Shown: positions 763 through 18,900, numbered from the stretch's first letter. The stretch: 20,000 nucleotides of DNA from an uncultured virus (IMG/VR IMGVR_UViG_3300033148_003715) (IMGVR_UViG_3300033148_003715); one strand, 5' to 3'. Program-made: numbers and translations. The notes: a model not told the origin generated them from the sequence alone.

Positions 763-785
763 GAACACCAGACAGGAGAGAAGGA

Positions 786-1579: not shown

Positions 1580-1582
1580 GAA

Positions 1583-1600
1583 GTTTGGGATATCGCAAAG
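1583..1600. promoter_or_regulatory. 18-bp palindrome copy 1 (GTTTGGGATATCGCAAAG, 2 mismatches)
   Basis: Between stop 1579 and the AAGGAG RBS of the next gene. 16/18 match to GTTTGGGATATCCCAAAC. Confidence 0.7.
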
Positions 1601-1615
1601 CGAAAGGAGTAGACG

Positions 1616-1990
1616 ATGGACAAGTGGAGTGAGGGGCAGTTCACAAAGCTGCTCGAGGAGGTGCAGGAGCCGTTCCAGGACGGCTTCGACTGGGAGGACA
1701 TTCCCAAGGCGCTCAAGACGAGCCTCGATGTCGTCCAGGGCCTCGACGAGCTGACCAACACGGAGAAGCGCGACGGGGCGATCAAGCTCGGCCGGGGGCT
1801 GCTCGAGAAGCATCTACCCGTGCTGCTCGACGAGCACGACCTACCGTGGGTGCCGGCCATGCTCGAGAAGACCGTCGTCGACCCGTGGCTGCTCAAGGGA
1901 GCCCTCTGGGCCTACGACCGGTTCGCACCCGATCTGTTCACCTGGGTCGTCGACGCCGCCAAGGGGAGGCTTGCGATCAAGCAGGGATAG
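1616..1990 (+). CDS. Hypothetical protein (possibly membrane-associated or holin-like)
   Basis: AAGGAG RBS, ATG start, good codon bias, moderately hydrophobic C-terminal half. Last gene before the terminator. Confidence 0.75.
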   Translation: MDKWSEGQFTKLLEEVQEPFQDGFDWEDIPKALKTSLDVVQGLDELTNTEKRDGAIKLGRGLLEKHLPVLLDEHDLPWVPAMLEKTVVDPWLLKGALWAYDRFAPDLFTWVVDAAKGRLAIKQG

Positions 1991-2030
1991 CTGCACTGGT
2001 CGACCCCCCACCGGGTCGTCCGACTTCCGA

Positions 2031-2073
2031 AGCTGCGGCGTTGCGGGGTGTTCCTGCAACGCCGCAGTTCTTT
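2031..2073 (+). terminator. Probable intrinsic terminator ending the virion module
   Basis: Perfect 12-bp stem CTGCGGCGTTGC (2033-2044) / GCAACGCCGCAG (2056-2067), extendable with G-U and G-C pairs, followed by TTCTTT. About 40 nt after stop 1990. Confidence 0.65.
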
Positions 2074-2133
2074 GATGGGCCGAGGGGTCTAATAGAGAGA
2101 CCTTTGAGAAAAGCAGTTAAAGGAAGAAGTACT

Positions 2134-2640
2134 ATGCAGATCACGTATAAGGATCTGGGCCAACCCTTCCTTGTCTGGTGGCAATCGGTCCCGTGGAGGA
2201 AGACCCCGATCTTGACCGTGTCGTGGCCTGGCCTGATAGTGATCGGGGCCGATCCAGAGTGGCCGGACGGGTTCACTCCCTCAAGGTTGGACGGGTGGGG
2301 CAAGTGCTCGTTCAGGTTCGCCAAGGTAAGGAATCTCCCGGGCGTGCGTTCCCTCCCCGATGTACCGGTCCCGAACCTCGAGCCTGTTCTCGATCTCAAA
2401 CGCGGCCACCTCCAGAAGGGGAAGCCGGGTTTGAGATCGGATCGTGAGATCAAGTTCGGCGAGCGTGGGGTCTATTTGGGTATGGGAGACAGATCCAAGA
2501 TCAGGAGAGCGCTCGGGACGTCCTCGAGTCAGATCCTCGAGTTCCGACTGTTCGAGTCCGAGGAGCCCGAGGGACTGAAGGTGATCGTCTACAAGAGCAA
2601 GAGGATGAGGGTGATCGCGTCGGTCTCGGAGGGAGAGTGA
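2134..2640 (+). CDS. Hypothetical protein
   Basis: AAGGAAG upstream of ATG2134. 3' part of ORF 1846..2640. The stop overlaps the GTG of the SNF2 gene. Confidence 0.65.
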   Translation: MQITYKDLGQPFLVWWQSVPWRKTPILTVSWPGLIVIGADPEWPDGFTPSRLDGWGKCSFRFAKVRNLPGVRSLPDVPVPNLEPVLDLKRGHLQKGKPGLRSDREIKFGERGVYLGMGDRSKIRRALGTSSSQILEFRLFESEEPEGLKVIVYKSKRMRVIASVSEGE

Positions 2641-4352
2641 TCCTCGTCTCCCTGACCCGGGCGGGCACGGTCGGGCTCAGACCCAAGACCAGAGCCGACC
2701 GTGCCCGCCTAAGGTCTATCCCGTACGTGAAGCGGACCCGCAGCGGGGTCGGGGCTACGTGGTGGACCTATCTGTCGGATCTGCGCCGAGACGTGCCGGC
2801 TCGTCAGCTCTGTTGGGACCCAGGGGTGGTCGGCCGTCTCCGCGCGTTGAAGCTCTCCCTGGACGAGCGCCTCAAGGGCGACGACGACGAGGTCCTGCGT
2901 GAGTTTGCCGACGGGGTCGAGCCATACCGGTTTCAGATCCAGGCGATTCATTGCGCGCTCAACGTGAAGCGCCTCCTGATCGCCGACGACACCGGGCTTG
3001 GGAAAACCATTGAGACCATCGGGACCATGCAGGTCGCGATGGCTAGAGGTCTGGTTCGGCGTGCGATCCTAGTCGTCCCGTCCGGGGTGAAGGTCCAGTG
3101 GTACGAGGAGATCCACCGCTTCGCTCGTTGTCCGCCTGATCCGATCGTGGTCGTCATGGGGGGATCGCCCAAGACCAGGAAGACCATCTACAAGAAGTCC
3201 TGGCGGGTCCTGGTGATCAACCCCGAGCTGGTCAGGATCGACAGCCGACACATCGACCGCGTGGAGGATGTCGACTTCGTCGTCCTCGACGAGGCGAGCT
3301 GTATTCGGAACCCCGACACAGCCATCGCCTACACGATGAAGGAGCTGTTCAAAAGGACCAAGTTCCGACTCGCCCTCACGGCGACACCGGTCGAGAACCG
3401 ACTCGCCGATCTTTGGTCGGTCTTCGAGTGGGTGGACAGGCGCGTGTTTCTATCGAAGAGGTACTTCGATAGCCGATACATCGTTTGGAAGAAGCGCAAG
3501 CTGACCGTCTACAGTAATCGGCTCAAGCGCAATGTGACGATCACCAAAGAGGAGCCTTTGCGATATCGCAAACTCCGTGAGGTTCAGGCGAAGATTCGAC
3601 CCGCCTACATCCGACGTCGAGTCAGCGACGTCGAGATTGAGCTTCCAGGCTTGATCGTCAAGTGGGAGACGATCCACCTTCCCAAGAGACAGAGGCTCGT
3701 CTACGAGGCCATCAAGGACAAGGTCATCGCCAAGCTCGCGGGACTGCGAGGTGCCGCGCTCCGGGCTCCCCTCCAGGCCCTCAGGCAGGCGTGCAACAGC
3801 ACGGCACTGGTGGAGCGGGCCGGGGGGCAGAAGCCCGTCCACGCCAAGGTGGACCGGATCCGGGAGCTGCTCGAGACCGAGCTGGCCGGCGAGCAGGTGA
3901 TCGTCTTCACCGACTACGAGCGGTTCGTCAGGCTCATGATGGACGAGCTGCGCCAGTACCGCCCCGTGGCCTACACGGGGAAGATGACCAAGCGGGACAA
4001 GCAGCGGGCCGTAGAGGCGTTCCGGCTCGGGGACCGGCGGCTCCTCCTCGGGACCAAGGCGCTCGAGCGCGGGCACAACCTCCAGAACGCCTCGATTGTG
4101 ATCAACGTCGACCTGCCCTGGAACCCGGCCGCGGTAGCCCAGCGGATCGGGAGGATCCGCCGGATCGGGTCCGAGCACGGCACGTGCAGGTTGATCAACA
4201 TGATCGCCAAGGGGACGGTCGAAGAGAAGCTGATCATGCGGAAGCTCTACCTCAAGAACAAGCTGTTCCTGGATCTGTTCGAGTCAGCGAGTGACGTCAC
4301 GTTTGACCTGTTCGAATCCATGGGCGGGGCGGAGGTAGCGGACTTCCTGTGA
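2637..4352 (+). CDS. SNF2-family (SF2) helicase/ATPase
   Basis: Motifs YQ-like PYRFQ, LIADDTGLGKT (I), VVLDEAS (II), LTATPVENRLADLWS (III), VIVFT (IV), GHNLQNASIVINVDLPWNPA..QRIGRIRRIG (V/VI). Confidence 0.93.
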   Translation: MILVSLTRAGTVGLRPKTRADRARLRSIPYVKRTRSGVGATWWTYLSDLRRDVPARQLCWDPGVVGRLRALKLSLDERLKGDDDEVLREFADGVEPYRFQIQAIHCALNVKRLLIADDTGLGKTIETIGTMQVAMARGLVRRAILVVPSGVKVQWYEEIHRFARCPPDPIVVVMGGSPKTRKTIYKKSWRVLVINPELVRIDSRHIDRVEDVDFVVLDEASCIRNPDTAIAYTMKELFKRTKFRLALTATPVENRLADLWSVFEWVDRRVFLSKRYFDSRYIVWKKRKLTVYSNRLKRNVTITKEEPLRYRKLREVQAKIRPAYIRRRVSDVEIELPGLIVKWETIHLPKRQRLVYEAIKDKVIAKLAGLRGAALRAPLQALRQACNSTALVERAGGQKPVHAKVDRIRELLETELAGEQVIVFTDYERFVRLMMDELRQYRPVAYTGKMTKRDKQRAVEAFRLGDRRLLLGTKALERGHNLQNASIVINVDLPWNPAAVAQRIGRIRRIGSEHGTCRLINMIAKGTVEEKLIMRKLYLKNKLFLDLFESASDVTFDLFESMGGAEVADFL

Positions 4353-4387
4353 CCGCCGCACAGGGATCTAATCAGATAGGAGGACGC

Positions 4388-4975
4388 ATGAAGATCGAGA
4401 TCGGGCAAGGCGAGGAGATCGTGATCACCCTGGAGGATACGGACGGGGAGTTCACGATCAAGTGGGGAGAGGAGGCGCTCACGATCGAGGCCGACCTACC
4501 CGACGACGAGGGGCGCGGCGGGCACGTCGAGCTGAACGAGCGCAAGGTCGACCCTGACCAACCGGACTGCGACCCGGTCATCTACCGGGAGACGTTCGGG
4601 CGCGACATGGACGAGGGGGGGAACAAGATCCCGCCGGTCGGGGTCGTGACGATCAGTGGCGGTTACGGGCCCGACGGCGAGCCGCTGGAGCAGAAGGTTG
4701 AGATCGTGGGCGGACTTCGGCATCGCGACAAGCTCCTCGGGGACCTCGCGGCGGAGCTGAAGCGGCGCGACCACCACAACGCCAAGGTCCAGCTCGAGAA
4801 CCGCGGCCACATGCAGACGACGAACGTGATCCACATTCACGCTCGCCTCGTCGACGCCGAGGGTGAGGTGCTGCTCGACGGCTACTTCGGCACGGTCCTC
4901 GAGTACGTGGTCGAGGACATCTACTGGGACGAGAACGGCGACTGGGCCGACGCGGTGCGGGTCGAGTTCGAGTAG
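4388..4975 (+). CDS. Acidic hypothetical protein
   Basis: AGGAGG RBS before ATG4388 (alternative coupled GTG at 4349). Strong GC3 bias and D/E-rich. Confidence 0.75.
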   Translation: MKIEIGQGEEIVITLEDTDGEFTIKWGEEALTIEADLPDDEGRGGHVELNERKVDPDQPDCDPVIYRETFGRDMDEGGNKIPPVGVVTISGGYGPDGEPLEQKVEIVGGLRHRDKLLGDLAAELKRRDHHNAKVQLENRGHMQTTNVIHIHARLVDAEGEVLLDGYFGTVLEYVVEDIYWDENGDWADAVRVEFE

Positions 4976-4988
4976 GTCCTCGGTCTTC

Positions 4989-5010
4989 GAGTTTGGGATA
5001 TCCCAAACTC
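4989..5010. promoter_or_regulatory. 18-bp palindrome copy 2 (extends to perfect 22-bp GAGTTTGGGATATCCCAAACTC)
   Basis: Perfect palindrome in the gap immediately before the dnaE RBS (AAGGAG). Confidence 0.8.
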
Positions 5011-5022
5011 TCAAGGAGAAGC

Positions 5023-8000
5023 ATGGCTCGTAAGAAGACCTTCTTCCCGATGCTTCACACTCATGACGAATACAGCATCAAGGACGGATGCAGCACGGTC
5101 GAGACCTACGCGAAGATCGTGAAGGGGCTCGGGGGTGACTCGCTTGCCGTGACCAATCACGGCCAGGCGGCGGGATTTGCCCGGCAGTGGTTCGCTTGCA
5201 AGGACCAGGGGATCAAGCCCATCTTCGGCCTCGAGGCCTACCTGTGCGAGGACCGCCACTCTACCGTCAGGGATGTCCTGGTCGAACTGAGGAAGAAGGA
5301 CAAGAAGGCGAAGGGCAAGGACCTCTCGATCCGCGCCAAGATCGCCAAGGCCGACGCTTTCCTCAAGGAGCGGTTCCGGCCGAGCCCTCATTCGGTCTTG
5401 CTGGCCCAAACCCGGGAGGGATACCGCAACCTGGTCCGAGTCTCGTCCGACTCCTGGCAGCGCGGCTTCTACTACGTGCCCAGGACCGACACGGCGTTTC
5501 TCGCCGAGCACGCCGAGGGGCTCGCCTACTCAACGGCCTGCATGGGCGGCTACATTCCTAAGCTCGCCAGGGACGACCCCGAGAAGGCCCTCAGGGAGGC
5601 CAGGAGGCTTCAAAAAGCATTCGAGGGGAGATTCTATGTCGAGCTGCTCATGACCGAGTACGGGCCCCAGAGGGAGTCCAACCAGGCTATGCTTGAGCTG
5701 GCCCACGAGATCGGGGCTCGGACGATCCTGACCTGCGACGTCCACTACGCGCGCCCGCGGGACTCGAAGGCGCAGGACACGCTCCTGCTAATGCGGGACA
5801 AGAAGACCATCAAGGACCGCGAGACCGGCGGCGAGGTCTGGCAATTCGAGACCAAGGACCTCTACTGGAAGACGCTCGAGCGCGTCGTCGAGTGCTGGCG
5901 AGACCATCACGGCGACTACCTGGATCGGAAGACGTTCAAGCGGTCGGTCAGGAACACCTACGCGCTCGCGGAGTCGATCGAGCACATAGAGTTCGACACG
6001 AGCCTGAAGCTCCCGGGGGTGTTTGAGAATCCCCAGGCCACGTTGAGGGAGCTGGTCGTGGTAGGGCTACGCCTCCGGGTGGCTCGTGGCGAGGTCCCGG
6101 CCAGTGGGAAGACGAGGCGCGACTACGTGGACCGGATCAAGCGCGAGCTGACCGTGGTCAACGTGAAGGGGTTCGCGGAGTACTTCCTTGTCCTGCACGA
6201 CGTGTGCGACCACGCCCGGAAGATTGGCTCGCGCATGGGCCCCGGCCGGGGGAGCGCGGGCGGTTCGCTCCTTGCGTTCCTCCTGCGAATCACCGAGATC
6301 GACCCACTGCGATTCTCGCTCCTGTTCGAGCGGTTCCTGGACGAGAACAGGCCAGACCCGCCCGACATCGACCTCGACTTCTCTCCCGAGCACCGCGACG
6401 CGATCAAGCAGTACGTGCAGGACCAGTACCCGGCCACGGCAACGATCGGATCGTTCGGCACCTTCAAGCCCAGGACGACGATTCAGAACGTGGCCCGCGT
6501 CTACGGGCTCGACCACCGCGAGGTCCTGAAGATCACCAAGCCCCTCGGGACCGACGCGGATAAGAAGACGTGGGATGAGGTGTTTGATCTCTGGCCTGAG
6601 GTCGAGGAGTTCGCCGACGACAACCCCGAGGCGTGGGAGGTGATCAAGACCCTCCGGGGGTTGATCTCCCACCGGGGTAAGAACGCCGCCGGGGTCCTGA
6701 TCGCGCCGGCTTCGGCTCTGGACGAGATCCCCATGATCGTCGAGCCCGACACGGGCCAGGTCGTGACTGCGTTTCCAGACAGCCAGGGCGATGGGGTCAC
6801 CTATCACGGGCGTGAGCTGACCAGGTTGGGCTACTTGAAGCTCGACATCCTCGGGGTCCGCAACCTCAATATCGCTCCTTTGGCGGCCGAGATCCTCGAG
6901 CGCGAGACCGGCGAGATGGTCGATCTGTCGGTGTCGTCTATGCCGCTCGACGACGCTCCGACTCTCGCGACGGCCTCGACGGCTGTCGTGCCTGGCGTAT
7001 TCCAGCTCGACTCGGCGACGACGCGCCCGATCCTCAAGCACGTCGGCGTTGACTCGTTCATTGACCTCGTCATGGTGACCGCGCTCTGTCGACCCGGCCC
7101 GCTCAAGCACGAGATCCATCGCGAGTTTTCACGACTCAAGCGGGCCGGCGGCGAGTGGAAGCGCGGCCTCCACCCGAAGCTCGTCCCGCTTCTCCGGGAG
7201 AGCCGCGGACTCATGATTCTCCAAGAGGATGTTATGGCCGTCGTCCAGGTCCTCGGGGGTCTCACGTTCGGCGAGGCCAACATGGTGCGTAAGGTGATCG
7301 GGAAGAAGCTCGACCCGGCTGCATTCAAGCCCTGGTGGGAGAAGTTCCTCGAGGGCGGTCTCGCTTTGGATCATTCCAAGGAGGAGCTAGAAGGAACGTG
7401 GTCGAAGATTGTCACCTTCGCCCGCTATGGATTCCCGAAAGCTCACGGGGTCGCCTACATGCTGACTAGCTATCAGCAGCTCTACATGCTCACCCACCAT
7501 CCACTGTTCTACTTTGCCGCGCTCCTCGCCCAGACCCCGCGCTCGAAGAAGACCAACTGGGGCGAGGAGAAGCTCGTCGGATTCATGCGGTCCGCCATGG
7601 GAGGCAGCCTGTCCGTGTTGGGTCCAGACGCGAGAGCCGGTTCGATCGAGTTCGACGTCGAGGACGGGGCGATCAGGTTCGGCCTCTCGAAGATCAAGGG
7701 AGTCGCGAGCGCGGCCGAGGCCGTCCTGGCCGCGCGACCCTTCTCGACCCTCTCGGAGTTCCACGACAAGATCGAGAAGAAGAAGGCGAACGCGCGAGTC
7801 GTGAAGGCCTTGATCTACTCCGGTGCGCTAGACGGACTCCGGCTCGGACGCGGTCTCGAGCGGGCCGAGCACGAGGCGCGCGAGCAGGGCGTTTTCCCGG
7901 AGGAGATCGAGTGGAGGAACGTGCTCATCGCGGGCTATCACGCCCTGCGGAAGACCAAGGGCGATCCTGACGTGTTTCTCTCGGGCTCGCTCCTCGATCG

Positions 8001-8406
8001 CGAGAGGGAGCTGATTGGGTTTGCGTTCTCCTGGTGGGGGTCTAATCAGAAGGGAGAGCTGAGAGAACAGGAAGGGCTCGAGACGATTGCCTGGCACGAA
8101 GAGGAAGACGTGACTCGGACGGAGATCCTGGCCGAGGTGACGAGGGCAAAGATCCACAAGAGCAAGCGCGGCCCTATGGCGTTCCTGACCCTGGCTGACG
8201 AGACCGGGTTGATCGAGAATGTGACGATCTTCGCCGAGCAGTGGAAGCACTACCGGGACCGTCTCAAGCCCGGGAGGATCGTGGTGATCCGCCTCAGACG
8301 GCGCGAGAGCACCAACCCACGCTACGGCGAGTTCAGCTACTACCTGGACGACCGCGCCGACGAGCAGGTCGAGCCCGCACAGCGCGCCCTCAGGAGAGGT
8401 AGGTGA
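5023..8406 (+). CDS. dnaE: DNA polymerase III alpha subunit (DnaE-type, family C)
   Basis: PHP domain motifs LHTHDEYSIKDG, TNHG, IKPIFGLEAY, TCDVHY. Polymerase motifs GPGRGSAGGSL, LLFERFL..RPDPPDIDLDF, LKLDILG, GVFQL, RPGPL, YGFPKAHGVAY, IRFGLSKIKGV. C-terminal OB fold (MAFLTLADETG). AAGGAG RBS before ATG5023. Confidence 0.97.
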   Translation: MARKKTFFPMLHTHDEYSIKDGCSTVETYAKIVKGLGGDSLAVTNHGQAAGFARQWFACKDQGIKPIFGLEAYLCEDRHSTVRDVLVELRKKDKKAKGKDLSIRAKIAKADAFLKERFRPSPHSVLLAQTREGYRNLVRVSSDSWQRGFYYVPRTDTAFLAEHAEGLAYSTACMGGYIPKLARDDPEKALREARRLQKAFEGRFYVELLMTEYGPQRESNQAMLELAHEIGARTILTCDVHYARPRDSKAQDTLLLMRDKKTIKDRETGGEVWQFETKDLYWKTLERVVECWRDHHGDYLDRKTFKRSVRNTYALAESIEHIEFDTSLKLPGVFENPQATLRELVVVGLRLRVARGEVPASGKTRRDYVDRIKRELTVVNVKGFAEYFLVLHDVCDHARKIGSRMGPGRGSAGGSLLAFLLRITEIDPLRFSLLFERFLDENRPDPPDIDLDFSPEHRDAIKQYVQDQYPATATIGSFGTFKPRTTIQNVARVYGLDHREVLKITKPLGTDADKKTWDEVFDLWPEVEEFADDNPEAWEVIKTLRGLISHRGKNAAGVLIAPASALDEIPMIVEPDTGQVVTAFPDSQGDGVTYHGRELTRLGYLKLDILGVRNLNIAPLAAEILERETGEMVDLSVSSMPLDDAPTLATASTAVVPGVFQLDSATTRPILKHVGVDSFIDLVMVTALCRPGPLKHEIHREFSRLKRAGGEWKRGLHPKLVPLLRESRGLMILQEDVMAVVQVLGGLTFGEANMVRKVIGKKLDPAAFKPWWEKFLEGGLALDHSKEELEGTWSKIVTFARYGFPKAHGVAYMLTSYQQLYMLTHHPLFYFAALLAQTPRSKKTNWGEEKLVGFMRSAMGGSLSVLGPDARAGSIEFDVEDGAIRFGLSKIKGVASAAEAVLAARPFSTLSEFHDKIEKKKANARVVKALIYSGALDGLRLGRGLERAEHEAREQGVFPEEIEWRNVLIAGYHALRKTKGDPDVFLSGSLLDRERELIGFAFSWWGSNQKGELREQEGLETIAWHEEEDVTRTEILAEVTRAKIHKSKRGPMAFLTLADETGLIENVTIFAEQWKHYRDRLKPGRIVVIRLRRRESTNPRYGEFSYYLDDRADEQVEPAQRALRRGR

Positions 8407-9026
8407 GCGAGTGCCAGGTCTGCCGCGGCTCACGGCACGTCTGGGACAAGGAGGCCGGGTCGTGGGTGTCGTGCGAGTGCCTACAGACCGAGCGAGCCCT
8501 GGCCCGGTACCGGTCGGCCGGGGTGCCGACCTGGCTCGAGGGGATGACGTGGCGGAGTTTCCTCGATTCACATCAGGTCTCGGACCCGGCTACGCTTCTT
8601 CGAATCGCAGCCAAGCTCAGGCGGGGTGAGCTACCGTGCGAGGGTCTCCTCGTTCACGGGAGGCCATCGCGGTCCAGAACCACGGCCGCGGCTCTCGTGC
8701 TCAGGTCCGCGTGTGATGCCGGGCTCGGGGTCCACTCAGTCACGATTCCGGCCTTGATCGACATCGAGTTTGACCGTGACCGCTCGCATCCCGAGGCTCT
8801 CGAGGCTGACGTGTTGTCGATCAGGTGCGGGGGCGAACCCGCGCACAAGTGGAACGGCTACGTCCTCGAGAAGGTGTTCCGATCCAGGGCCACAGCGGGC
8901 CTGTTCACCATGGTCGTCGCGGATCGTGATCCGGGTAGGCTCGAGGCCCTTTATAGGTCTGGTACGGTCGCGGACACGCTCAGACAATTCGTCAAGACAC
9001 GGGTCGCCCCGGAGGGAGTCGAGTGA
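8403..9026 (+). CDS. DnaC/IstB-like helicase-loader homolog with N-terminal Zn finger and degenerate P-loop
   Basis: CQVCRG..CEC..RYRSAGVP N-terminus as in phage DnaC-like proteins. GLLVHG followed by RPSRSRT instead of xxGxGKT. C-terminal R...GLFTMV sensor-like region. Directly upstream of and coupled to dnaB. Confidence 0.65.
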   Translation: MSECQVCRGSRHVWDKEAGSWVSCECLQTERALARYRSAGVPTWLEGMTWRSFLDSHQVSDPATLLRIAAKLRRGELPCEGLLVHGRPSRSRTTAAALVLRSACDAGLGVHSVTIPALIDIEFDRDRSHPEALEADVLSIRCGGEPAHKWNGYVLEKVFRSRATAGLFTMVVADRDPGRLEALYRSGTVADTLRQFVKTRVAPEGVE

Positions 9027-10387: not shown

Positions 10388-10894
10388 GTGTCGTGGAAGT
10401 GCCCGACTTGTGGCCCGGTCGACGCCCCCATGTTCGGCGAGGACGAGCAGTTTCATTGCTCCAAAGTGGGCTGCGACGAGGTCGTCTCGATCCTCTCGGA
10501 GGCCGAGAGGATCGCCGCGCAGGGCTGGAAGAAGTTCAGTATCGGTCCTGGGCCGAGGAGGAACCACGCGAAGGAGGAGCAGGACAGCAGGACTGCGACG
10601 GCCGAGGGTAAGAGGATCCTGGCCAACATGGCCGCACGGAACGAGGCAAGATCGAGAGGAACGACGATCGTGAAGAAGACCAAGAAGAAGGCTGGAGTCA
10701 AGGACCAGAAGAAGTCGGCGGCGGCCAAGAAGAAGCCCGACGCGACCTCGGCCGAGGTCGCGGCGATCGAGACCTGCCTCCGCGCGCTCGAGGGACTTGA
10801 CGCGGCCGAGTCGGTGATTCGCTACGTGGCTCGCCGGCACGGTCTCTCGGTCCTCGCCGTTGGACAGAACGCGACCTCGACTCGCGCCCTATAG
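10388..10894 (+). CDS. Zn-ribbon protein with Lys/Ala-rich segment
   Basis: WKCPTCG..HCSKVGC N-terminus, then KKTKKKAGVKDQKKSAAAKKKP and a short helical C-terminus. GTG start immediately follows the dnaB stop; GGAG upstream. Confidence 0.7.
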   Translation: MSWKCPTCGPVDAPMFGEDEQFHCSKVGCDEVVSILSEAERIAAQGWKKFSIGPGPRRNHAKEEQDSRTATAEGKRILANMAARNEARSRGTTIVKKTKKKAGVKDQKKSAAAKKKPDATSAEVAAIETCLRALEGLDAAESVIRYVARRHGLSVLAVGQNATSTRAL

Positions 10895-10912
10895 GTTTGG
10901 GATATCCCAAAC
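10895..10912. promoter_or_regulatory. 18-bp palindrome copy 3 (perfect)
   Basis: GTTTGGGATATCCCAAAC fills the whole gap between TAG (10892-10894) and ATG10913. Confidence 0.8.
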
Positions 10913-11569
10913 ATGGGTGAGGTCGGGAGGAGGATCGCGCGAATCAAGCTGGTTCCGTTCGAGGACGCCCTCAGGACGGTCGCCCCCGCCTGGCTCGAGA
11001 TCCCCGACTCGCTCCCGGCGATGATCGAGTGTCCGCTCCCCGACCACGATGACGTGACTCCCTCGTGTTGGGTCCAGCCGCACCGCTGGCACTGCTTCGG
11101 GTGTGGTTGCGGTGGCGATGTTTTGGATCTGGTCCAGGGGTTGATCGGGGTGGAAGTCGTCGCGGCCCTCCGGGTGGTCGAGCACGCACTCGGGTTCCGT
11201 CAGGGCGAGGACGAGGAGCTGTTCGAGCTGCTCGCCAGGTCTCGGGCCCGGCCGAGTCCGACCATCGATCGCCGTTCCTGGGAGGCCGAGTTGGAGCAGA
11301 TCGAGCGAGACTACTTTGATCGGGTCCGCCCCTATCTGAGGTGTCGTGATCCGATCGTCTCGGGTCGGGCCTGGTCGGTTTCCGATTACGTCTTCGCCCG
11401 GCTCGCTCTCGCGGCCTGGCCGGTCCCGAAGACCGCGCGCCGAGCCCGTGAGGTGACGCGCCGGCTCCGGTCGTGGTCGCAGGCCTACGCGGCCGGGCTC
11501 GAGGCGGACGTCGAGAGGATCACGGGCAAGGATCGCCTGGATGTCTCGCTCCAGCATTGGCTGCAATAG
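10913..11569 (+). CDS. CHC2 (DnaG-type) zinc-finger protein without TOPRIM domain
   Basis: CPLPDHDDVTPS..WHCFGCGCGGDVLDLV..G.....AL is the DnaG Zn-binding domain. The remainder is a short helical region with no EGxxD or DxD TOPRIM motifs. Confidence 0.85.
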   Translation: MGEVGRRIARIKLVPFEDALRTVAPAWLEIPDSLPAMIECPLPDHDDVTPSCWVQPHRWHCFGCGCGGDVLDLVQGLIGVEVVAALRVVEHALGFRQGEDEELFELLARSRARPSPTIDRRSWEAELEQIERDYFDRVRPYLRCRDPIVSGRAWSVSDYVFARLALAAWPVPKTARRAREVTRRLRSWSQAYAAGLEADVERITGKDRLDVSLQHWLQ

Positions 11570-11606
11570 GGTTACAACCTTCTCGGGATCTTTCTGGTTT
11601 CACCCC

Positions 11607-11641
11607 TTGTGGGGTGGGTATGACCCGGCTATAACGTGGGT
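11607..11641 (+). promoter_or_regulatory. Putative sigma70-type promoter (TTGTGG-N17-TATAAC), possibly giving a leaderless transcript
   Basis: TTGTGG 11607-11612, 17-bp spacer, TATAAC 11630-11635. ATG11642 follows 6 nt later with no SD. Overlaps the inverted repeat CACCCC-TTGT-GGGGTG (11601-11616). Confidence 0.45.
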
Positions 11642-12064
11642 ATGAGCAGCACAACCAAGACCCGCCGCCGACCCAAGAACATGGCCGAGAAGAACCTGAC
11701 CTGCTCGCGCTGCAAGGGCACCGGCTACGTCGACTCCCCCGTCCTCTACGCGGGCCGCCCCGGTGGCTGCTTCAAGTGCGCCACCCGCGGAACGGTCCCG
11801 AACCGGGCCAAGCAGTACCGGCTCGACCTCGAGGAGGCCCGCTCCAACCTGGTCGAGGCTCAGAAGGATGTCCCCGAGGCTCGCAGGCTGATCGAGGAGG
11901 CGGTCGTGGCGAAGCGGGCCCGCTATGAGGCCAAGGGGACGGAGTTCACCGCCAAGCGCGAGGCCAGCTACCGCGGGCGGCTCCAGAGCGACGTCGACCG
12001 TGCCTTGAAGGCCCTCTCTTACCGCGAGGCCGAGCTGGCCGCCTTTGTCGACGAGGGGATTTAG
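11642..12064 (+). CDS. Small Zn-finger (CxxCxGxG, DnaJ-like repeat) coiled-coil protein
   Basis: CSRCKGTG..GGCFKCATRG followed by a helical, charged C-terminus. Strong GC3 bias. Start could alternatively be ATG11681. Confidence 0.75.
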   Translation: MSSTTKTRRRPKNMAEKNLTCSRCKGTGYVDSPVLYAGRPGGCFKCATRGTVPNRAKQYRLDLEEARSNLVEAQKDVPEARRLIEEAVVAKRARYEAKGTEFTAKREASYRGRLQSDVDRALKALSYREAELAAFVDEGI

Positions 12065-12105
12065 TTGTAAGGGCGACGAATAAGAACAACACGAAGGAGA
12101 CAACC

Positions 12106-12558
12106 ATGAAGAAGCAGACCAAGCTCGATCGCGCCCAGATCCTCATCCTCGCCAATTCCGAGGAGGGAGGGTCGGTCAGTGTCTCGAGCCGGTATGGTGG
12201 GCCGAGCTGGGCCGAGGGTACCGGCATCGGGCTCGGGACCATTCAGCGGGCCGCGAAGATCCTCGAGGATCGGGACCTGCTCCGCACCCCCGGCTACAAC
12301 AACCGGTCGAGCCACTACCACCGGACGACCGAGGCCGAGCGGCGCGAGGCTCGCGAGGTCACCCACCGCCGCCACGCCGCCGACGCCGAGTCGAAGGACG
12401 TCCGGGCCACCCTCGAGGGCCACGGGGTTGAGACCAAGAAGGACTACGGGACCGACATCATCATGACCGCCGCCAACGCCCGCAAGCTCCTCGCCCTGAT
12501 CGGGTCCAGCGCGGACGCCGAGACCCTCGCAGCGGTCCGGGCCCTGCTCACCAAGTAA
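12106..12558 (+). CDS. Hypothetical protein (possible winged-helix-like N-terminus)
   Basis: AAGGAG RBS, ATG start, strong codon bias. GTGIGLGTIQRAAKILEDRDLL resembles a wHTH recognition helix. Confidence 0.8.
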   Translation: MKKQTKLDRAQILILANSEEGGSVSVSSRYGGPSWAEGTGIGLGTIQRAAKILEDRDLLRTPGYNNRSSHYHRTTEAERREAREVTHRRHAADAESKDVRATLEGHGVETKKDYGTDIIMTAANARKLLALIGSSADAETLAAVRALLTK

Positions 12559-12580
12559 CCAAGCCCAGAAGGCGACCGAC

Positions 12581-12604
12581 AAGGAGGCGACTATGACCAA
12601 GTAG
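12581..12604 (+). other. Minigene: AAGGAGG RBS + ATG ACC AAG TAG (Met-Thr-Lys-stop)
   Basis: Full SD at 12581-12587, 5-nt spacer, ATG12593, stop at 12602-12604. Confidence 0.5.
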
Positions 12605-12610
12605 TCGGCA

Positions 12611-12671
12611 GCGTGTCTAAGGCGGATTGGCCCTCGGGGGTCGGTGACGGGTTCGACTCCCGTGGCGCGCG
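12611..12671 (+). ncRNA. tRNA-like small RNA (acceptor stem + canonical T-arm; no D-stem; 4-nt loop in place of the anticodon loop)
   Basis: Acceptor GCGTGTC (12611-17) / GGCGCGC (12664-70). D-loop-like TAAGGCGGATT. Stem GGCCC-TCGG-GGGTC. Linker GGTG. T-arm ACGGG-TTCGACT-CCCGT. Discriminator-position G, then TCA. Confidence 0.65.
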
Positions 12672-12703
12672 TCAACCCTGATTAGTAGACCAAGGAGAAG
12701 GCT

Positions 12704-13105
12704 ATGAAGACCACCACGACCCAGAAGATCATGAACGCGATCCGGGACCTGCATGACTCGACCCCGAAGATCGTCGCCGCGACCGGCCTGGCGGCCTCGA
12801 CGGTCCGGCGCAATCTGTCCGTCCTGCGCGAGTCCGGCCAGATCGTCGCGGCCGGTCAGGCCCGGCCCCGGGGCTACACCTACTCGCTCCCGACCCCGGA
12901 GCCCATGCCGGAGTTCGTCACCACCGCCACCCCGGAGGAGACGATCATCGCCACCCTCGAGGCCCCGACCCCGTTCGGCCTCATCGCGGCCCGGACCCGG
13001 ATCAAGCGGGTTCGGCTCCAGGCCGTCCTGGTCCTGCTCGTCCAGGACGGGAAGCTGATCCGGGAGCGGATCAGCGGCGGCTGGGTCTACCAGCGGACCG
13101 CGTGA
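12704..13105 (+). CDS. Tandem winged-HTH DNA-binding protein
   Basis: AAGGAG RBS. Two wHTH-like units (STPKIVAATGLAASTVRRNLSVLRESGQI and TPFGLIAARTRIKRVRLQAVLVLLVQDGKL) joined by a Pro/Thr linker. Confidence 0.8.
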   Translation: MKTTTTQKIMNAIRDLHDSTPKIVAATGLAASTVRRNLSVLRESGQIVAAGQARPRGYTYSLPTPEPMPEFVTTATPEETIIATLEAPTPFGLIAARTRIKRVRLQAVLVLLVQDGKLIRERISGGWVYQRTA

Positions 13106-13219
13106 CCCCTCAGGGGCCGCTCACAGGTCTCGATCTCCCCCTGGGGGGATCCGGGCCTGTCGGGCGAGATCGTGCGCGAGGCGAGCCCGGAGAGCGTCAC
13201 AGGGCACGCCCGGGAGAAG

Positions 13220-13237
13220 GTTTGGGATATCCCAAAC
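13220..13237. promoter_or_regulatory. 18-bp palindrome copy 4 (perfect)
   Basis: GTTTGGGATATCCCAAAC in the intergenic region about 40 nt upstream of ATG13277. A second perfect palindrome, GACCCCCCGGGGGGTC (13243-13258), is adjacent. Confidence 0.8.
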
Positions 13238-13276
13238 TCCTTGACCCCCCGGGGGGTCTACTTGGGAGAGGAGACC

Positions 13277-13444
13277 ATGGTCGATCAGGAGAGATGGAAG
13301 AGGGTTAGGAGGGCCGCCAAGGTTAGGCGAGACACGCTCCTCAGGGAGTTGTTCGAGGCCGAGGAGCGCGGCAACTCGACTCGAGTCGAGATTCTGCGGA
13401 TAGGGATCTCAACCGCCGACCGAGAGGCGAGGGGGGAGGCGTGA
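13277..13444 (+). CDS. Small hypothetical protein (55 aa)
   Basis: GAGGAG RBS before ATG13277. The stop overlaps the next GTG (GTGA). Confidence 0.6.
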   Translation: MVDQERWKRVRRAAKVRRDTLLRELFEAEERGNSTRVEILRIGISTADREARGEA

Positions 13445-14550
13445 TCGCCGAAGGGGAGTTTACCCTGCACGAGATCCGGGCCCAGCAGGTCAGGCTCGAC
13501 CAGATCACGTCCCGGCTCGGGACGTTTCGGGAGTCGCTCTCCTTCAAGAGGGCCACGGCCGCCGCGGGGGAGACGGAGGCCGAGGCCCGCACGCTCGGCG
13601 AGGCCCTCAAGGTCGAGGAGTTCCGCGAGGCCCTCGAGGCGTACTCGACGGCGCGGGATAGGGAGCGGCAGGCCCAGAAGGCGTTCAACCGATGTCGTCG
13701 CACCAGGAGGGGCGGCTACACCGAGACCGGCGAGACCAGGAGGAACGAGCTGGCTGGGGCTCAGTCGAGGCTCAACTCGGAGCGCCTGCGCGTCCTGGAC
13801 CTGGCCGACCGCCACGGGGTCCCGGTCAACCTCGCGGCCTACGGCTCGGGGTCGCTCCTAAGTGACCTCAAGTGGCGACTCAAGAATCTGATCGCCAGTT
13901 ACCGGGACGGGGATCTCCCGGCCCTGATCTCCGGCACCGAGAGGGAGGAGCGCGAGTTCCGCGAGGCCCTGGACGCCATGCGGGGATCCCAGATCACGCC
14001 CAAGCGGGTCCGCCTGTTCGGACTCTACCTGAGCCTGAAGGCGCAGAAGACCCTCGTCAAGCTCTCGGCCGGGTACCAGCCCAAGAAGAAGACGATCGAG
14101 AATCAGGCGGCGACCTATGACGTCCTCGTTGACCTTGGCATGATCGAGCGGACAAGCCGGGTCTCGGTCGAGGACTTCGGGAGGGACGTCGCGGAGTGGC
14201 TTGAGCTGAACGTGTTGGTCCCGGATGTCAAGACCGCGGAGGCCAGGTCGGTCCCGCTGCGCGACGTCAAGAAGGCATTCACGGAGGACGAGCGGGGAGA
14301 CATGGTGACTCGGGCCAGGACAGAGTTGGCCCGGATCGTCGCGGAGGGCGAGGACGACCTGAGCACGATCCAGCTCGGCGTCGACGGGGCCAGCTACGAG
14401 ATCCTCAGGACCCGAGGGGCGCTTAGGTGGTTCCTGCGAATGATCGGTGGTTTGGCGGAGAAGCAGCCAGGCGTGAGAGCCAGGATCCGCTCGAGGAAGC
14501 GCCCTCCCGCGTTCGTCCCAGGGAGGATCGTCAATGTCGGACAGGCGTGA
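13441..14550 (+). CDS. Hypothetical protein, coiled-coil-rich
   Basis: 369-aa ORF with GGAGG RBS, coupled GTG start and good codon bias. No recognised motif. Confidence 0.75.
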   Translation: MIAEGEFTLHEIRAQQVRLDQITSRLGTFRESLSFKRATAAAGETEAEARTLGEALKVEEFREALEAYSTARDRERQAQKAFNRCRRTRRGGYTETGETRRNELAGAQSRLNSERLRVLDLADRHGVPVNLAAYGSGSLLSDLKWRLKNLIASYRDGDLPALISGTEREEREFREALDAMRGSQITPKRVRLFGLYLSLKAQKTLVKLSAGYQPKKKTIENQAATYDVLVDLGMIERTSRVSVEDFGRDVAEWLELNVLVPDVKTAEARSVPLRDVKKAFTEDERGDMVTRARTELARIVAEGEDDLSTIQLGVDGASYEILRTRGALRWFLRMIGGLAEKQPGVRARIRSRKRPPAFVPGRIVNVGQA

Positions 14551-14586
14551 TATGACCCCTGGTCTGTGGGTGCAACCGTGAGAGAG

Positions 14587-17500
14587 ATGTCGGACCAGGA
14601 CGAGCTGATCGACGCCGCCCGCGAGGTTCTCCTGCACCCGCTCGTCTCCGGGAACGCGGTCGCGCGGAAGCTCCTTGAGTTGCTCGAGGACGATCCCGAC
14701 CAGGTCCTGTCTCTCGTGCTCGGCGAGACCTCGCCCCGAGGGAAGCCGACCGTGCAGGCCGTGTTGGAGCGGAAGAAGGCGCACCAGAGAAGCAAGAAGA
14801 GGAAGCCGAGGAGACGTGTCTGTAGGACGGAGCCGATCCCCCAGCTCAGGCTCTACACGTTGGCCGAGCGCCCTTCCCGGCCCCTCACGGTGGTCGATGT
14901 CCCGACCGAGGGAGGCCAGGTCTGTCCCGCTTCGGAGTTCCCCTACCACGACCTCGGGCACGAGGAGTTGAACCCGATCCAGACCGCGGTCCTGCCATGG
15001 GTCGATAGGGACGTGAATCTGGTCGTGGCGGCGGCGACCTCCGCGGGTAAGACGATTGCGGCTGAGATGATGATCGCGGACGGTCTCGCCCGGGGTGGTA
15101 AGGGGATCTTCCTCAGTCCGCTCCGCGCCGTCAGCCAGGAGAAGCACGACGACTGGACGGGTGATCATCCTTGGAGCGAGTTGGGGGTCTCGATCGTGAC
15201 CGGTGACTACTCCCTCACGGACAAGCGGAGACGGGAGCTGCGTAGGGCCGATGTGGTCGTCATGACATCGGAGATGTTGGATTCAAAAAGCAGGAGAATG
15301 AGCAATCAGAACGAGTTCCTGAACGAGGTGCTCGCGCTCGTCGTGGACGAGGCCCACCTGCTCACCATGAAGGGCCGAGGGGATGCGCTCGAGTGTGGGG
15401 TGATGCGATTCACGAGGAAGAACCCGAGCGCGAGAGTCATTCTTCTGAGCGCGACCATGCCCAACGTGGACGAGCTGGGGACGTGGCTGACGTGCTTGAA
15501 CGGGAAGCCCTCGGTGGTGATTCGTTCGGACTGGCGCCCGACCCGGCTCACCGTTCACTGGCCCACCTACCGGGTCAGCCACGGCCGGGGCAGTTACCAG
15601 CGGAACGAGGCGAGCAAGCGCAAGGTGACGCTCGACCTGGTCGATCGCTACCCGGACGACAAGTGGTTGATCTTCGTCCACGGGAAGAAGGCCGGCTGGA
15701 GCTTGCTCGAGGAGCTGCACGAGCTGCACGAAGAAGCCGAGTTCCACAACGCCGACTTGGCCCGTGACAAGAGGATCGAGCTGGAGCGACGATTCAGATC
15801 CGGCTCCCTCCGGGTGGTGGTCGCGACCAGCACGCTCGCCTACGGGTGCTACAGGCACGGGACCGCGGTGGCGCTGGCCGACGGGACCCTCAGAGCCATA
15901 GAGAAGGTCGGACCAGGAGACGATGTCCTGTCCCTTGTCGACGGTCGATTTATATCCAGCCGGGTTCGATTCGCAGCGGAGAAGCAGGTTGAATCTGCCC
16001 TGAGGATTCGCCTCCAAACGGGCGAGACGTGCGATGTCAGCCGCGATCACGTGTTCTACGGGGCCGTCAGGCGGGACTCTCCTGCCTGGGTAGAAGCTCA
16101 CGAACTGGTTGTCGGGGACTTCTTGGCGGTTCCCTCGAATCTCGAATCGCCTCGGTTCATGATCGGCGAACAGGTCGAGGACGAGTGGGCCTATGTTCTG
16201 GGGTTCGTCCACGGTGATGGGTCGATCTGTCGCGCAGGATCCCACGCGGACGGAAAGTCGAAGCTGCAACTTGACGTCTCCGCAGGACATGAAGACGCAG
16301 ATCATCTGCATTGTTTCTGGGGGATACTCGAGGACGTCACTGGCGAACGGTTCCCAGAACCGAGGAGACGCCGGGACGGGGTCTGGCACATGGTCACCAA
16401 GCGTCGGGCCGTCGTTGATGCTATCGCGGCTGAGTTCGGACCGTGGGACAAGGCGTCTCTAGGTATTCCTGATCGAGCCTCAGACAACACGCGGTCGCTT
16501 CGGTCGTATCTGCGCGGTCTGTTCGACACCGACGGCTGGGTTCAGAAGCACGGCGAGAAGAACTTCTCGGTCGGACTCAGCAGCATCAGCGAGACCCTCA
16601 TCAGACAGGTTCAACACCATCTTCTGAGGTTCGGCGTCCGAGGCAGCGTTACTCGCCACCGCATGAGGGATTCGGTGTTCGGCGAGAGGATCCAGCCGGC
16701 CCGCCGCGACTACTCATGGAGGGTCACGATCTACAACTTCCAGGCGATCAGGTTTCGCGAGCGCATTGGGTTCCGTCTGGAGCGGAAGCGCGACCGACTG
16801 GACGAGTTCGAGTTCGGGGGAACCGAGCCCAACGCGACGGCCGATCTGATCCCCGTTCGTGGCCTGATCGACGATCACCTCTTGGTTAATCAGACTTCTC
16901 CTTCTGATCTTGAGAGGGAAACAGGCCAGAGACGTTGGTGCGTGGTGAATAGGAAGGACATCACCCGTGCTTCTGCTCAGAAGATCATCAAGGCGTTCCC
17001 TGACTCGTCTGCTCTGAACGATCTAGTTGACCAGAACGTCCTCTGGAAGAAGGTGGTCGAGATCGAGGACGTTGAGGGAGGCAGGTTCCAAGACATCACC
17101 GTCGACGGACAGAACTTCGTCGGTGCCGGGATCGTCTCGCACAACTGTAATCTGCCCGCCCGCCGAACTCTCATTCTTGGGGTCCACCGGGGCATCTCCG
17201 AGGTGGACCCGATCGACGTCAAGCAGGAGTGTGGACGCGCCGGTAGGACGGGCATGGACTCAGAGGGGGACGCCTACGTGTTGATCCCCGAGAACCGGGC
17301 TAGACAGGTCAGGCAGCGGTTCAGCCTCGTCCCCAGGATCGAGTCCAGGATCAACGACGTCGACGTTCTCGCGTTCCACCTCACGGCGGAGGTCGCGGAG
17401 GGTGACGTGCGGACCCTGGCCGACGCGGTCGCGTGGCACTCGAGGAGCTTGGCCGCCCACCAGGGCAACGGCCTCGAGGAGGACGGCGCACTGGTCTCGG

Positions 17501-18193
17501 CCGAGAATGTGGTTGAGAAGCTGATCCAGGCGGGGATCCTGAAGCGTGACGAGGACGGGACCCTGTCCGCGACCTCGCTCGGCCGGGTCTCGTCATGGCT
17601 CTACTACAGCCCGTTCGACATCGCGGACTGGTGCAGTAACTTCCGCCGCCTCGTCGAACTGGACAAGACCCGTGACGACGACTGCCTCGCCTGGGCACTC
17701 GGGAAGATCCGCACCGCGTACAAGACCACCTACCTGCCGAAGGAGCACGAGCGAGACCTGAACGAGCTGGAGTGGCGGCTGAGAGCCAAGGGGATCGAAC
17801 AACTCGTTCCATGGCATGATCGCCGGGCTCGACTACAAGGGAATCCGGTCCCAACAGAGACAGCTCACCTACGACTCCGAGAGGATCGTCCAGGCCCTCA
17901 AGCTGATAGACCAGCACGTCCTCCAGTCACTCGGGTCGACCTATTTCGGTTTGCTCGGGCTCCGGCTCCGCTATGGGTGCGGGTGGAAGGAGGCCGACTT
18001 GTGCTCGATTCCGGGCGTGGGTGCCAAGCGAGCCAGGCTCCTTGCCCGGGAGGGAATCTCGTCGGTCGAGGACGTGGTCGATCATCGTGGATCTGTGATG
18101 GCCGCGGTTGGGAAACGCCTTGCGATCAACGTCGTCAGGGGCGCCAAGCAGGTCCTGAAGGAACGACGGCGTGGGGGGTTGCAACGCGGTTAG
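14587..18193 (+). CDS. Hel308/Ski2-like SF2 DEAH helicase, intein-containing, with apparent +1 frameshift near 17783-17816
   Basis: LNPIQ (Q motif), AATSAGKT, SPLRAVSQEK, VVDEAH, LSATMPN, WRPTRL, LIFVHGKK, VATSTLAYG/NLPA, QECGRAGR. The Hel308-like C-terminus (LRYG..L.SIPGVGAKRARLL..GI.S) lies in the +1 frame ORF 17816..18193. Start is ATG14587 or GTG14566. Confidence 0.85.
15847..17145 (+). mobile_element. Intein (433 aa) with LAGLIDADG homing endonuclease
   Basis: Starts CYRHGTAVALADG (block A). Block B VSRDHVF. LAGLIDADG-like WAYVLGFVHGDGS and YLRGLFDTDGWV. Ends FQDITVDGQNFVGAGIVSHN followed by +1 Cys. Removal restores STLAYG-CNLPA (helicase motif V). Confidence 0.95.
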
Positions 18194-18247
18194 GTTTGAG
18201 CTAAGATTGGGGAACGACGGGACAACCGTCGAGATTAGAGGAAAGAC

Positions 18248-18508
18248 ATGACGCAGTCGAAGAAGACCAAGAAGAGGATGAAGCGAACCGCCGAGGAGCC
18301 CGGTCAGGTTTGCGATATCCCAAACCCCACAGACGTCGTCAAGCACGTCTCAGACTCACCGTGCTCGATCGAGTTCAGCCGAGACGCGAAGGGTCAGCCC
18401 AGGTGGGCGATCAAGCTCTACGGCGAGCGCGACGACATGGACGACGTCCTCAACGACACCCTCAACCTCGATCGCAGGCTCCGTGAGGAGATGAAGAGTG
18501 GCACCTAA
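18248..18508 (+). CDS. Small hypothetical protein
   Basis: GAGGA RBS and ATG. Basic N-terminus, then SIEFSRDAKGQPRWAIKLY beta-hairpin and a helix. Contains palindrome copy 5. Confidence 0.65.
   Translation: MTQSKKTKKRMKRTAEEPGQVCDIPNPTDVVKHVSDSPCSIEFSRDAKGQPRWAIKLYGERDDMDDVLNDTLNLDRRLREEMKSGT
18308..18325. promoter_or_regulatory. 18-bp palindrome copy 5 (GTTTGCGATATCCCAAAC, 1 mismatch; intragenic)
   Basis: 17/18 match to the consensus. Flanked by an extra G/C pair (18307 and 18326). Confidence 0.75.
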
Positions 18509-18881: not shown

Positions 18882-18900
18882 TGAGGTCAAGCCCGGGGAC

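Follow-up and report, generated by a model that had tools for sequence, protein, structure and literature searches.

The closest published description of the kind of element studied here is that of the Cluster O mycobacteriophages, whose genomes carry 17-bp dyad repeats, TGTTCGGNNNCCGAACA, in more than 30 near-invariant copies, many of them intergenic and about one third in coding sequence (Cresawn et al. 2015, PMC4351075). These phages have neither an integrase nor parAB, and they encode ParB-like domain proteins and glycosyltransferases; the authors predicted a dimeric binder for the repeat, the function of which was unknown (PMC4351075). Phage repeats of this dispersed dyad type have been on record from 2015 or earlier, with neither a function nor a reader assigned to them. 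Here we describe an 18-bp palindrome, TTTGSGATATCSCAAA, that recurs through a 20,000-nt stretch of DNA (the window) from an uncultured virus (IMGVR_UViG_3300033148_003715) and through further contigs of the same phage type. As in Cluster O, the invariant dyad copies number in the tens, lie mostly between genes and sometimes in coding sequence (CDS), and belong to a phage with no obvious sign of being temperate. The two sequences are unrelated, however, and whereas the Cluster O repeat contains a 3-bp spacer the window motif is uninterrupted; the published account of the Cluster O repeat reports no motif switch between relatives and proposes no particular binder (PMC4351075). The value of the present case is not the existence of such a repeat, but a natural specificity-switch pair, in which two versions of a motif stand at the same genomic places (two of them inside genes where only the DNA is kept), together with evidence at the level of codons.

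The closest mechanistic models are KorB with its operator OB and Noc with its Noc-binding sites (NBS). KorB of plasmid RK2 is a ParB-family helix-turn-helix (HTH) protein that binds a short dispersed palindrome (OB core TTTAGCGGCTAAA) and, being a CTP-dependent sliding clamp, can act far from it, on promoters up to 1.5 kb from OB; its partition system includes a ParA-type partner, and KorA works together with it (PMC11790492). Noc, found in Firmicutes, is a ParB paralogue without ParA that also binds palindromes. NBS sites are scattered over the chromosome. The stoperators of Cluster A mycobacteriophages, in turn, are asymmetric sites that point in the direction of transcription and are used by a lysogenic repressor. 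Like the sites described here, those of L5 gp71 occur genome-wide as tens of copies of a short sequence in short intergenic gaps (PMC4351075).

Copies of the palindrome in the window and in the same phage type

When the window was searched with TTTGSGATATCSCAAA at up to three mismatches, six copies were found against 0.01 expected, and none of 200 shuffles reached six (Table 1). An earlier note made from this sequence had listed five copies. All five are there, those at 4991, 10895 and 13220 being perfect, but the total was an undercount, as the copy at 3556-3573 had been overlooked. The note also ascribed to the imperfect copies a half-site change at symmetric positions, which is borne out by G6>C at 18308 and C13>G at 1583, although the second mismatch of the latter (position 18) had gone unmentioned. 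Its placement of four copies at gene junctions and one in CDS becomes three clear junction sites, one probable junction site and two copies in coding sequence. An alternative GTG start at 13172 would place the site at 13220 within a CDS. Around this last site, the frame past the stop of the preceding gene remains open with a high GC content at third codon positions, and GC-only palindromes lie on either side (CCCCCTGGGGGG at about 13139-13150 and CCCCCCGGGGGG at 13245-13256).

Using a looser regular expression, the constant unit was found to be a 16-bp core, TTTGSGATATCSCAAA, of invariant spacing; the full GATATC-type site of the window phage is written here as GTTTGGGATATCCCAAAC. Each 9-bp half-site reads GTTTGGGAT, with the variant half-site GTTTGCGAT tolerated. 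The flanks are unconserved and the palindrome ends at 18 bp, with a copy at 23686 of contig G002 as the sole exception.

Two IMG/VR contigs extend the analysis beyond the window. G001 (47 kb) is 99.8% identical to window positions 1-18157 and continues upstream through a myovirus tail module. G002 (31 kb) has no protein in common with G001 and carries the capsid, protease, portal and large terminase genes and a run of small early genes. G002 pairs with contig G004 as G001 pairs with contig G003, and because these counterparts share one sample we presume that G001 and G002 come from different parts of a single genome type, though perhaps not from one molecule. G001 contains seven copies (none of the reversed control pattern), including perfect copies beyond the window at 2959 and 11934, and in addition a degenerate copy, with four mismatches, at 22935. 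G002 contains eight, six perfect and two with one mismatch, and again none of the control. Window, G001 and G002 together hold 16 or 17 copies, and 11 of 16 are perfect palindromes. Since the tail and head modules carry copies as well, the genome-wide character that the earlier note had proposed is supported.

Outside this phage type the sequence is rare and unrepeated. The exact 18-mer was found 24 times in the genomes of 185,579 species (one genome each), always as a singleton, in unrelated phyla and never repeated within a genome, and 27 times in JGI metagenomes, again only as singletons; none of these 51 loci is related to the phage. No contig with repetition of the REP/BIME type was seen among the same species' genomes. 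Six of the 51 loci (L029, L030, L031, L057, L060 and L067) show, about 100 nt away, similarity to the C-terminus of a G002 DNA methylase; they probably represent chance coding of a methylase peptide, because the 18-mer there reads V-W-D-I-P-N.

Table 1. Positions of the palindromic sites, of their counterparts in contig G003, and of the genes of the window. Coordinates are those of the 20,000-nt window unless a contig is named. SD, Shine-Dalgarno sequence; wHTH, winged helix-turn-helix; ORF, open reading frame.
Feature	Coordinates	Strand	Sequence or basis	Context
Site	1583..1600		GTTTGGGATATCGCAAAG, 2 mismatches (C13>G, C18>G)	3 nt past stop, 15 nt before ATG 1616
Site	3556..3573		CTTTGCGATATCGCAAAC, both half-sites 'C' variant	Inside SNF2 helicase CDS; rare codons
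Site	4991..5008		Perfect	15 nt past stop (4975), 14 nt before SD-ATG 5023 of DNA polymerase III alpha
Site	10895..10912		Perfect	Whole spacer, stop 10894 to ATG 10913 (primase zinc-ribbon protein)
Site	13220..13237		Perfect	114 nt past tandem-wHTH stop 13105, 39 nt before SD-preceded ATG 13277
Site	18308..18325		GTTTGCGATATCCCAAAC, 1 mismatch (G6>C)	Inside small ORF 18248-18508
Homologous G003 site				Before the gene at G001 12070
Homologous G003 site				Before the gene at G001 22788
Counterpart of site 3556	G003 33754			In SNF2 helicase
Counterpart of site 13220	G003 46128			After tandem-wHTH gene, 1 nt past the analogous wHTH gene
Counterpart of site 18308	G003 53501			In small ORF ahead of HTH_17
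SNF2-family helicase	2637..4352	+	Pfam/PHROGs	Host gene of site 3556
DnaE-type DNA polymerase III alpha	5023-8406	+	Pfam/PHROGs	
DnaB helicase	9023-10387	+	Pfam/PHROGs	
Primase zinc-ribbon protein	10913-11569	+	Pfam/PHROGs	
Tandem winged-helix (wHTH) protein	12704..13105	+	Pfam/PHROGs, weak match	Alternative candidate binder
DEAD-box helicase	14566-18204	+	Pfam/PHROGs	Interrupted by intein with LAGLIDADG endonuclease
Small ORF, 86 aa, conserved	18248..18508	+		Site 18308 in variable N-terminal part
HTH_17 (excisionase/MerR-type) protein	18498..18881	+		Alternative candidate binder
ECF-like sigma factor	18820..19440	+		Same operon as HTH_17
ParB/Noc/KorB-like protein, 5' part	19440..20000	+		186 of 439 codons; runs off window; full length = P0131

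A sister lineage carries a different palindrome at the same places

Only one close relative of the window polymerase is present in IMG/VR, on the 83-kb contig G003 (polymerase 63% identical), whose tail and replication modules are syntenic with those of G001 and the window. The earlier note had suggested scanning related phages with the motif. In its GATATC form the motif is absent from G003 (no copy at up to three mismatches), but a GGTACC version stands at the same places. The most frequent long words of G003 are all parts of one palindrome, TTGCGGTACCGCAA, which has the same architecture as the window motif with GGTACC at its centre instead of GATATC. G003 holds 32 copies of nnTTGCGGTACCGCAAnn at up to two mismatches and G004 holds 21 copies of the GGTACC type at up to one mismatch, about 50 in all, and four further relatives from other samples carry two to four copies each of the same type. 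The two motif versions differ at two of nine positions per half-site; compared with the tolerated half-site GTTTGCGAT, the 18-bp form of G003, GTTTGCGGTACCGCAAAC, differs solely at position 8 and its mirror position. A hypothetical intermediate, TTGCGATATCGCAA, was looked for in IMG/VR, where the matches listed were mostly singletons, with three contigs of two or three copies and no high-copy contig. Neither motif, as a 16- or 14-mer, was found in the literature searched.

Five of the nine sites of G001 and the window have a G003 site at the homologous junction (Table 1), and for five of the eight G002 sites a G004 site is found no more than 70 nt from the mapped homologous point, the other three being in non-homologous DNA. 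Combined, 10 of 17 sites occupy homologous positions in the sister lineage. Two of these positions lie inside genes. The SNF2 helicases of both phages contain the peptide TITKEEPLRYR(K/N)LREV, encoded at the site by CCT TTG CGA TAT CGC AAA in the window and by CCC TTG CGG TAC CGC AAC in G003, and five of the six window codons have shares of only 3-14% in the phage (CCT 7.4, TTG 7.1, CGA 9.3, TAT 13.5 and AAA 3.1%). In the small ORF, the C-terminal two thirds are conserved with G003, and the motif falls in the N-terminal part, which is variable; the two phages read it in different frames. Because the synonymous codons of the helicase follow each phage's own motif, and because the small-ORF peptide is unconserved, it is the nucleic-acid word that is selected. 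We conclude that the sites are genuine, that selection acts on them as nucleic acid and that they have changed in concert between the sister lineages. A concerted change of motif, together with conservation of the DNA inside genes, therefore points to a trans-acting reader with altered specificity.

The G003 sites are also evenly spread, with a mean gap of 2.4 kb, a coefficient of variation of 0.45 and a largest gap of 5.5 kb; none of 20000 random sets was as even. This fits a factor that covers the whole genome from many entry points. Among 80 loci around more distant polymerase relatives, a long repeated palindrome was seen at the G003 locus only and no ParB-core match lay within +/-10 kb, a result too weak for an association.

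At G003 67561-67595 (L153 7561-7595), just past an HU-family gene, two overlapping tandem hybrid sites, GCTTGCGATACCGCAAAG, were seen, in which one half is of the window type and the other of the G003 type.

The sites favour a DNA dyad over an RNA hairpin

Each palindrome could in principle be read as double-stranded DNA or as a hairpin in the transcript. The consensus has a predicted RNA fold of -8.6 kcal/mol. Four one-sided variants of the window phage, one of which is a positionally conserved site, fold at -1.5 or -2.3 kcal/mol. The central four nucleotides, which would be unpairable in a hairpin, are self-complementary in every version: ATAT, GTAC and, in one copy of contig G007, GCGC. The outer positions 2 and 17 of the G003 sites vary, but not together. 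No copy is followed by a T run, a terminator scan gave nine matches against 9.9 expected from shuffles, none of them at a site, and Rfam and tRNA scans of the sequence gave no match. Since the one-sided variants lose the fold, the loop bases are palindromic and the copies in CDS are conserved, the sites favour a DNA dyad read by a dimer, as the earlier note had preferred; a secondary RNA effect at some of them would be compatible with this.

A ParB/Noc/KorB-like protein is the leading candidate reader

Taken together, these features make it highly probable that the sites are docking sites of a dimeric, sequence-specific DNA-binding factor. Among the proteins encoded nearby, the product of the gene at 19440+ was pointed out in the earlier note as ParB-like, and recovery of its full length (P0131, 439 aa) strengthens that assignment. 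P0131 consists of an acidic stretch, a small beta-barrel, a basic linker rich in lysine, alanine and proline, a ParB N-domain, a ParB-type HTH and a family-specific C-terminal domain. A profile built from five homologues matched Noc (7nfu) with an E-value of 9e-6 across the ParB N-domain, the HTH and the LP motif that follows; the NCBIfam model TIGR00180 parB_part was matched at 5e-10 and 2e-11, and the PHROGs label is 'ParB-like partition protein'. Profile searches returned about 22 full-length family representatives of 430-530 aa, followed by ordinary ParB-sized proteins. The AlphaFold (AF2) model has a mean pLDDT of 78.7, with blocks mostly at 85-96 over residues 141-340, and the C-terminal domain (residues 360-439) is modelled confidently. 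With this model, the best PDB matches by Foldseek were Noc, ParB-CTP and KorB (E about 1e-9, probability 1.0, about 18-22% identity), and the HTH fold matches include the DNA-binding domains 6s6h, 1r71 and 6y93.

The CTP-binding boxes of ParB proteins are known by the motif names GERRxR and ENLQR. Across 23 members of the P0131 family, R159, G197, R200 and N234 are invariant and R237 nearly so. The recognition helix begins ISGSDVSKM in the window phage and LSESQLSKM in the G003 homologue, which is 46% identical to P0131; E-S-Q recurs in two proteins that are closer relatives of this homologue. In published work, four interface residues switch the specificity of ParB and Noc from one site to another with two bases changed in each half-site, much like the two motif types seen here (PMC7383237). 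The operon order small ORF, HTH_17, sigma factor, ParB-like protein is conserved, with a site within the first gene in both phages, and motif and ParB-like protein co-occur in two of two lineages. Searches of IMG/VR for ParB-family loci returned G003 only, tblastn against GenBank phages gave no match to the ParB-like protein, and a literature search for phage-encoded ParB with parS brought up nothing relevant.

On this basis, we tentatively propose the partner-less ParB/Noc/KorB-fold protein at 19440+ as the factor in question, a proposal to which we give a likelihood a little under even. A two-fold symmetric phage-made protein would dock on the 18-bp palindromes with one subunit per 9-bp half-site; by analogy with KorB/OB and Noc/NBS, the ParB-like protein would load at the dispersed sites and act on neighbouring DNA genome-wide, where it might regulate transcription, or organise or coat the phage DNA; repression, timing, compaction and protection are all conceivable outcomes. 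Junctions would then be largely the places where an 18-bp palindrome is tolerated, and the in-gene copies would mark places where a site is wanted despite its coding cost. Like Noc, P0131 has no evident ParA: no ParA/CbiA partner was seen among the proteins scanned (the window, G002 and parts of G003 and G004; these genomes are incomplete and a subset of ORFs was covered). It differs from Noc, a chromosomal and membrane-tethered protein, in its N- and C-terminal parts, and from KorB in belonging to a phage and in having an altered GERR box.

If the ParB link is true, genome-wide control of the CTP-clamp type would extend from plasmids and chromosomes to large phages. The natural pair of motif versions and a concrete candidate whose recognition helix differs between the lineages make the question testable. 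More speculatively, a partner-less ParB/Noc-type clamp with a histone-H1-like basic linker and evenly spaced sites might coat or organise the 130-kb genome of a probably lytic phage, the sites of sister lineages having all been re-keyed from GATATC to GGTACC together with the recognition helix. We regard this fuller scheme as unlikely at present; if it were true, the protein would be a virus-encoded nucleoid organiser with which a phage tells its own DNA from that of a competitor in a co-infected cell.

Alternative explanations

Several observations weigh against the reading set out above, in whole or in part. The parB_part scores of 39.5 and 44.2 bits fall below the curated cut-off of 58.45, Pfam ParB_N gave no match at E <=0.05 on the part of P0131 encoded in the window, and the GERR box reads GLHR or GLRR, without glutamate, which makes clamp chemistry uncertain. 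The HTH_17, tandem-wHTH and ArsR-type wHTH proteins are equally present beside the ParB-like protein, and the sole tight cluster of sites lies at the 3' end of the ArsR-type wHTH gene and not by the ParB-like gene. The sites of the window phage are more widely spaced than those of G003 and not significantly even. At G002 23686, 11 complementary bases are added on each side to give a 40-nt perfect hairpin, and two G002 copies lie just upstream of a promoter-like element, which would also suit a terminator or a classical operator. Finally, the two motif versions could reflect two hosts.

The same sites might accordingly have another reader, with HTH_17 (18498), the tandem wHTH (12704) or the ArsR-type wHTH using them as operators or roadblocks that time early and middle genes. 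We hold this to be possible, if rather unlikely. All three regulators are conserved in both lineages, HTH_17 being 39% identical to its G003 homologue; the tandem-wHTH gene is followed by a site in both phages, and at the head of the G003 HTH_17 operon a promoter-like element is followed, about 70 nt further downstream, by a site. At G004 30347-30549 (L271 10347-10549), four GGTACC-type sites, 69, 60 and 60 bp apart, fall in the 3' part of a 328-aa ArsR-type wHTH ORF, and in the homologous G002 ORF a perfect copy and a degenerate one stand at the corresponding end (L018 10652-10701). This cluster could be a centromere-like loading region or, equally, an autoregulatory or packaging site of the ArsR-type wHTH protein; each of its four sites translates as AVPQT. 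Yet the tandem wHTH is only 25% identical to its positional analogue in G003, against 16 of 18 positions shared by the motifs; HTH_17 shows no evident dimerisation domain; and at most sites the spacers, of 18-50 bp, are too short to hold a promoter. Proteins of the HTH_17/excisionase type are, moreover, usually monomers on direct repeats. The stoperator-type roadblock of a temperate phage, one of the options in the earlier note, is not favoured: in place of the asymmetry of stoperators, the window sites are palindromes without orientation, and no integrase or immunity repressor was seen when part of the genes predicted on the about 210 kb examined, an incomplete genome, was compared with Pfam or PHROGs. 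That the sites work instead as RNA, as an intercistronic hairpin serving as a terminator or attenuator, a processing signal or a stabiliser of mRNA, seems improbable. Most copies, read along the genes, do lie in the very short interval that separates a stop codon from the following ribosome-binding site, on co-directional genes, and both the consensus fold and the hairpin at G002 23686 are in keeping with such a role. A hairpin, however, needs neither an identical sequence at all sites nor a concerted switch between lineages, and it accounts poorly for the palindromic loop bases, for the one-sided changes in 4 of 16 copies, for the copies conserved inside the helicase gene and the small ORF, and for the lack of a U tract, of terminators above background and of an Rfam family.

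A host protein, such as a nucleoid-associated protein or a global regulator, could in principle read the sites, and the two motif types do come from different samples; we think this improbable too, since the exact 18-mer is never repeated in any of the 185,579 species' genomes and relatives with a capsid 78% identical to that of G002 still use the other motif. The copies might also mark the edges of gene cassettes open to exchange, or be a selfish element of the palindromic PeSL, REP or attC kind, and owe their upkeep to recombination and not to a binding function. Some do flank lineage-specific genes (a 168-aa gene before 10895, and intein or endonuclease inserts in G003), but 10 of 17 sites are at junctions of conserved genes or inside them, no transposase or RAYT-like gene was seen among the proteins scanned, and both the concerted switch and the copy written in rare codons speak for a trans-acting reader, which leaves this explanation very little room. 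Least probable, in our estimation, is that the core hexamers GATATC and GGTACC are targets of restriction-modification or DNA modification, with the flanks incidental. In G001 plus the tail of the window and in G002, 16 of 18 GATATC hexamers fall in sites, the phages encode N6/N4 DNA methylases, and a G002 protein with ParB_N only adjoins a glycosyltransferase; phage ParB-like activators of DNA-modifying enzymes have indeed been described (PMC13229309). Against this, the conserved unit is 16-18 bp and not 6 bp, and GGTACC is not avoided in G003 (39 observed against 27 expected), with several hexamers outside sites.

A promoter for the phage sigma factor was also considered, and is ruled out by the perfect 18-bp palindrome, the contact with the start codon at 10895 and the in-gene copies; the ECF-like sigma factor itself is not plausible as the reader of a palindrome.

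Genes of the window and minor observations

By Pfam and PHROGs matches, the window comprises the end of a tail-fibre gene and then the module for replication and regulation, all genes being on the + strand (Table 1); it comes from an uncultured tailed phage of 64% GC. The exact polymerase protein of the window has been recorded on a contig of 131 kb. GenBank has no phage close to the window sequence; among GenBank phages, the polymerases of Streptomyces phages are at most 30% identical to that of the window. A single-protein locus search with the polymerase gave no match, nor did a search of IMG/VR for the continuation of the window beyond 20000. The polymerase and DnaB of G003 are longer than their window counterparts, probably on account of inteins. 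In the phage ECF-like sigma factor region 2 is clear, and the start of its gene overlaps the HTH_17 gene by 62 nt.

By the portal gene of G002, on the minus strand (L017 8930-15092), genes were found for an N6/N4 DNA methylase, a ParB_N-only protein (206 aa, without HTH), a GT4 glycosyltransferase and an NAD epimerase. This group may form a DNA or capsid modification module (compare the enzymes treated in PMC13229309).

Lastly, a conserved promoter-like element of about 90 nt was noticed at window 11557-11648, comprising TGCAATAGGGTTAYGA and CCCTTGYGGGG, then GGCTAYAAC, GGCTATAAC and GGGTATGAG at 11-nt spacing. It recurs in G002 (L018, at about 340-430 and at 885-980, 3090-3180 and 3710-3800), where it precedes small early genes and in two copies directly follows a palindrome, and in G003 at 53413, where it heads the HTH_17, sigma factor and ParB-like operon.

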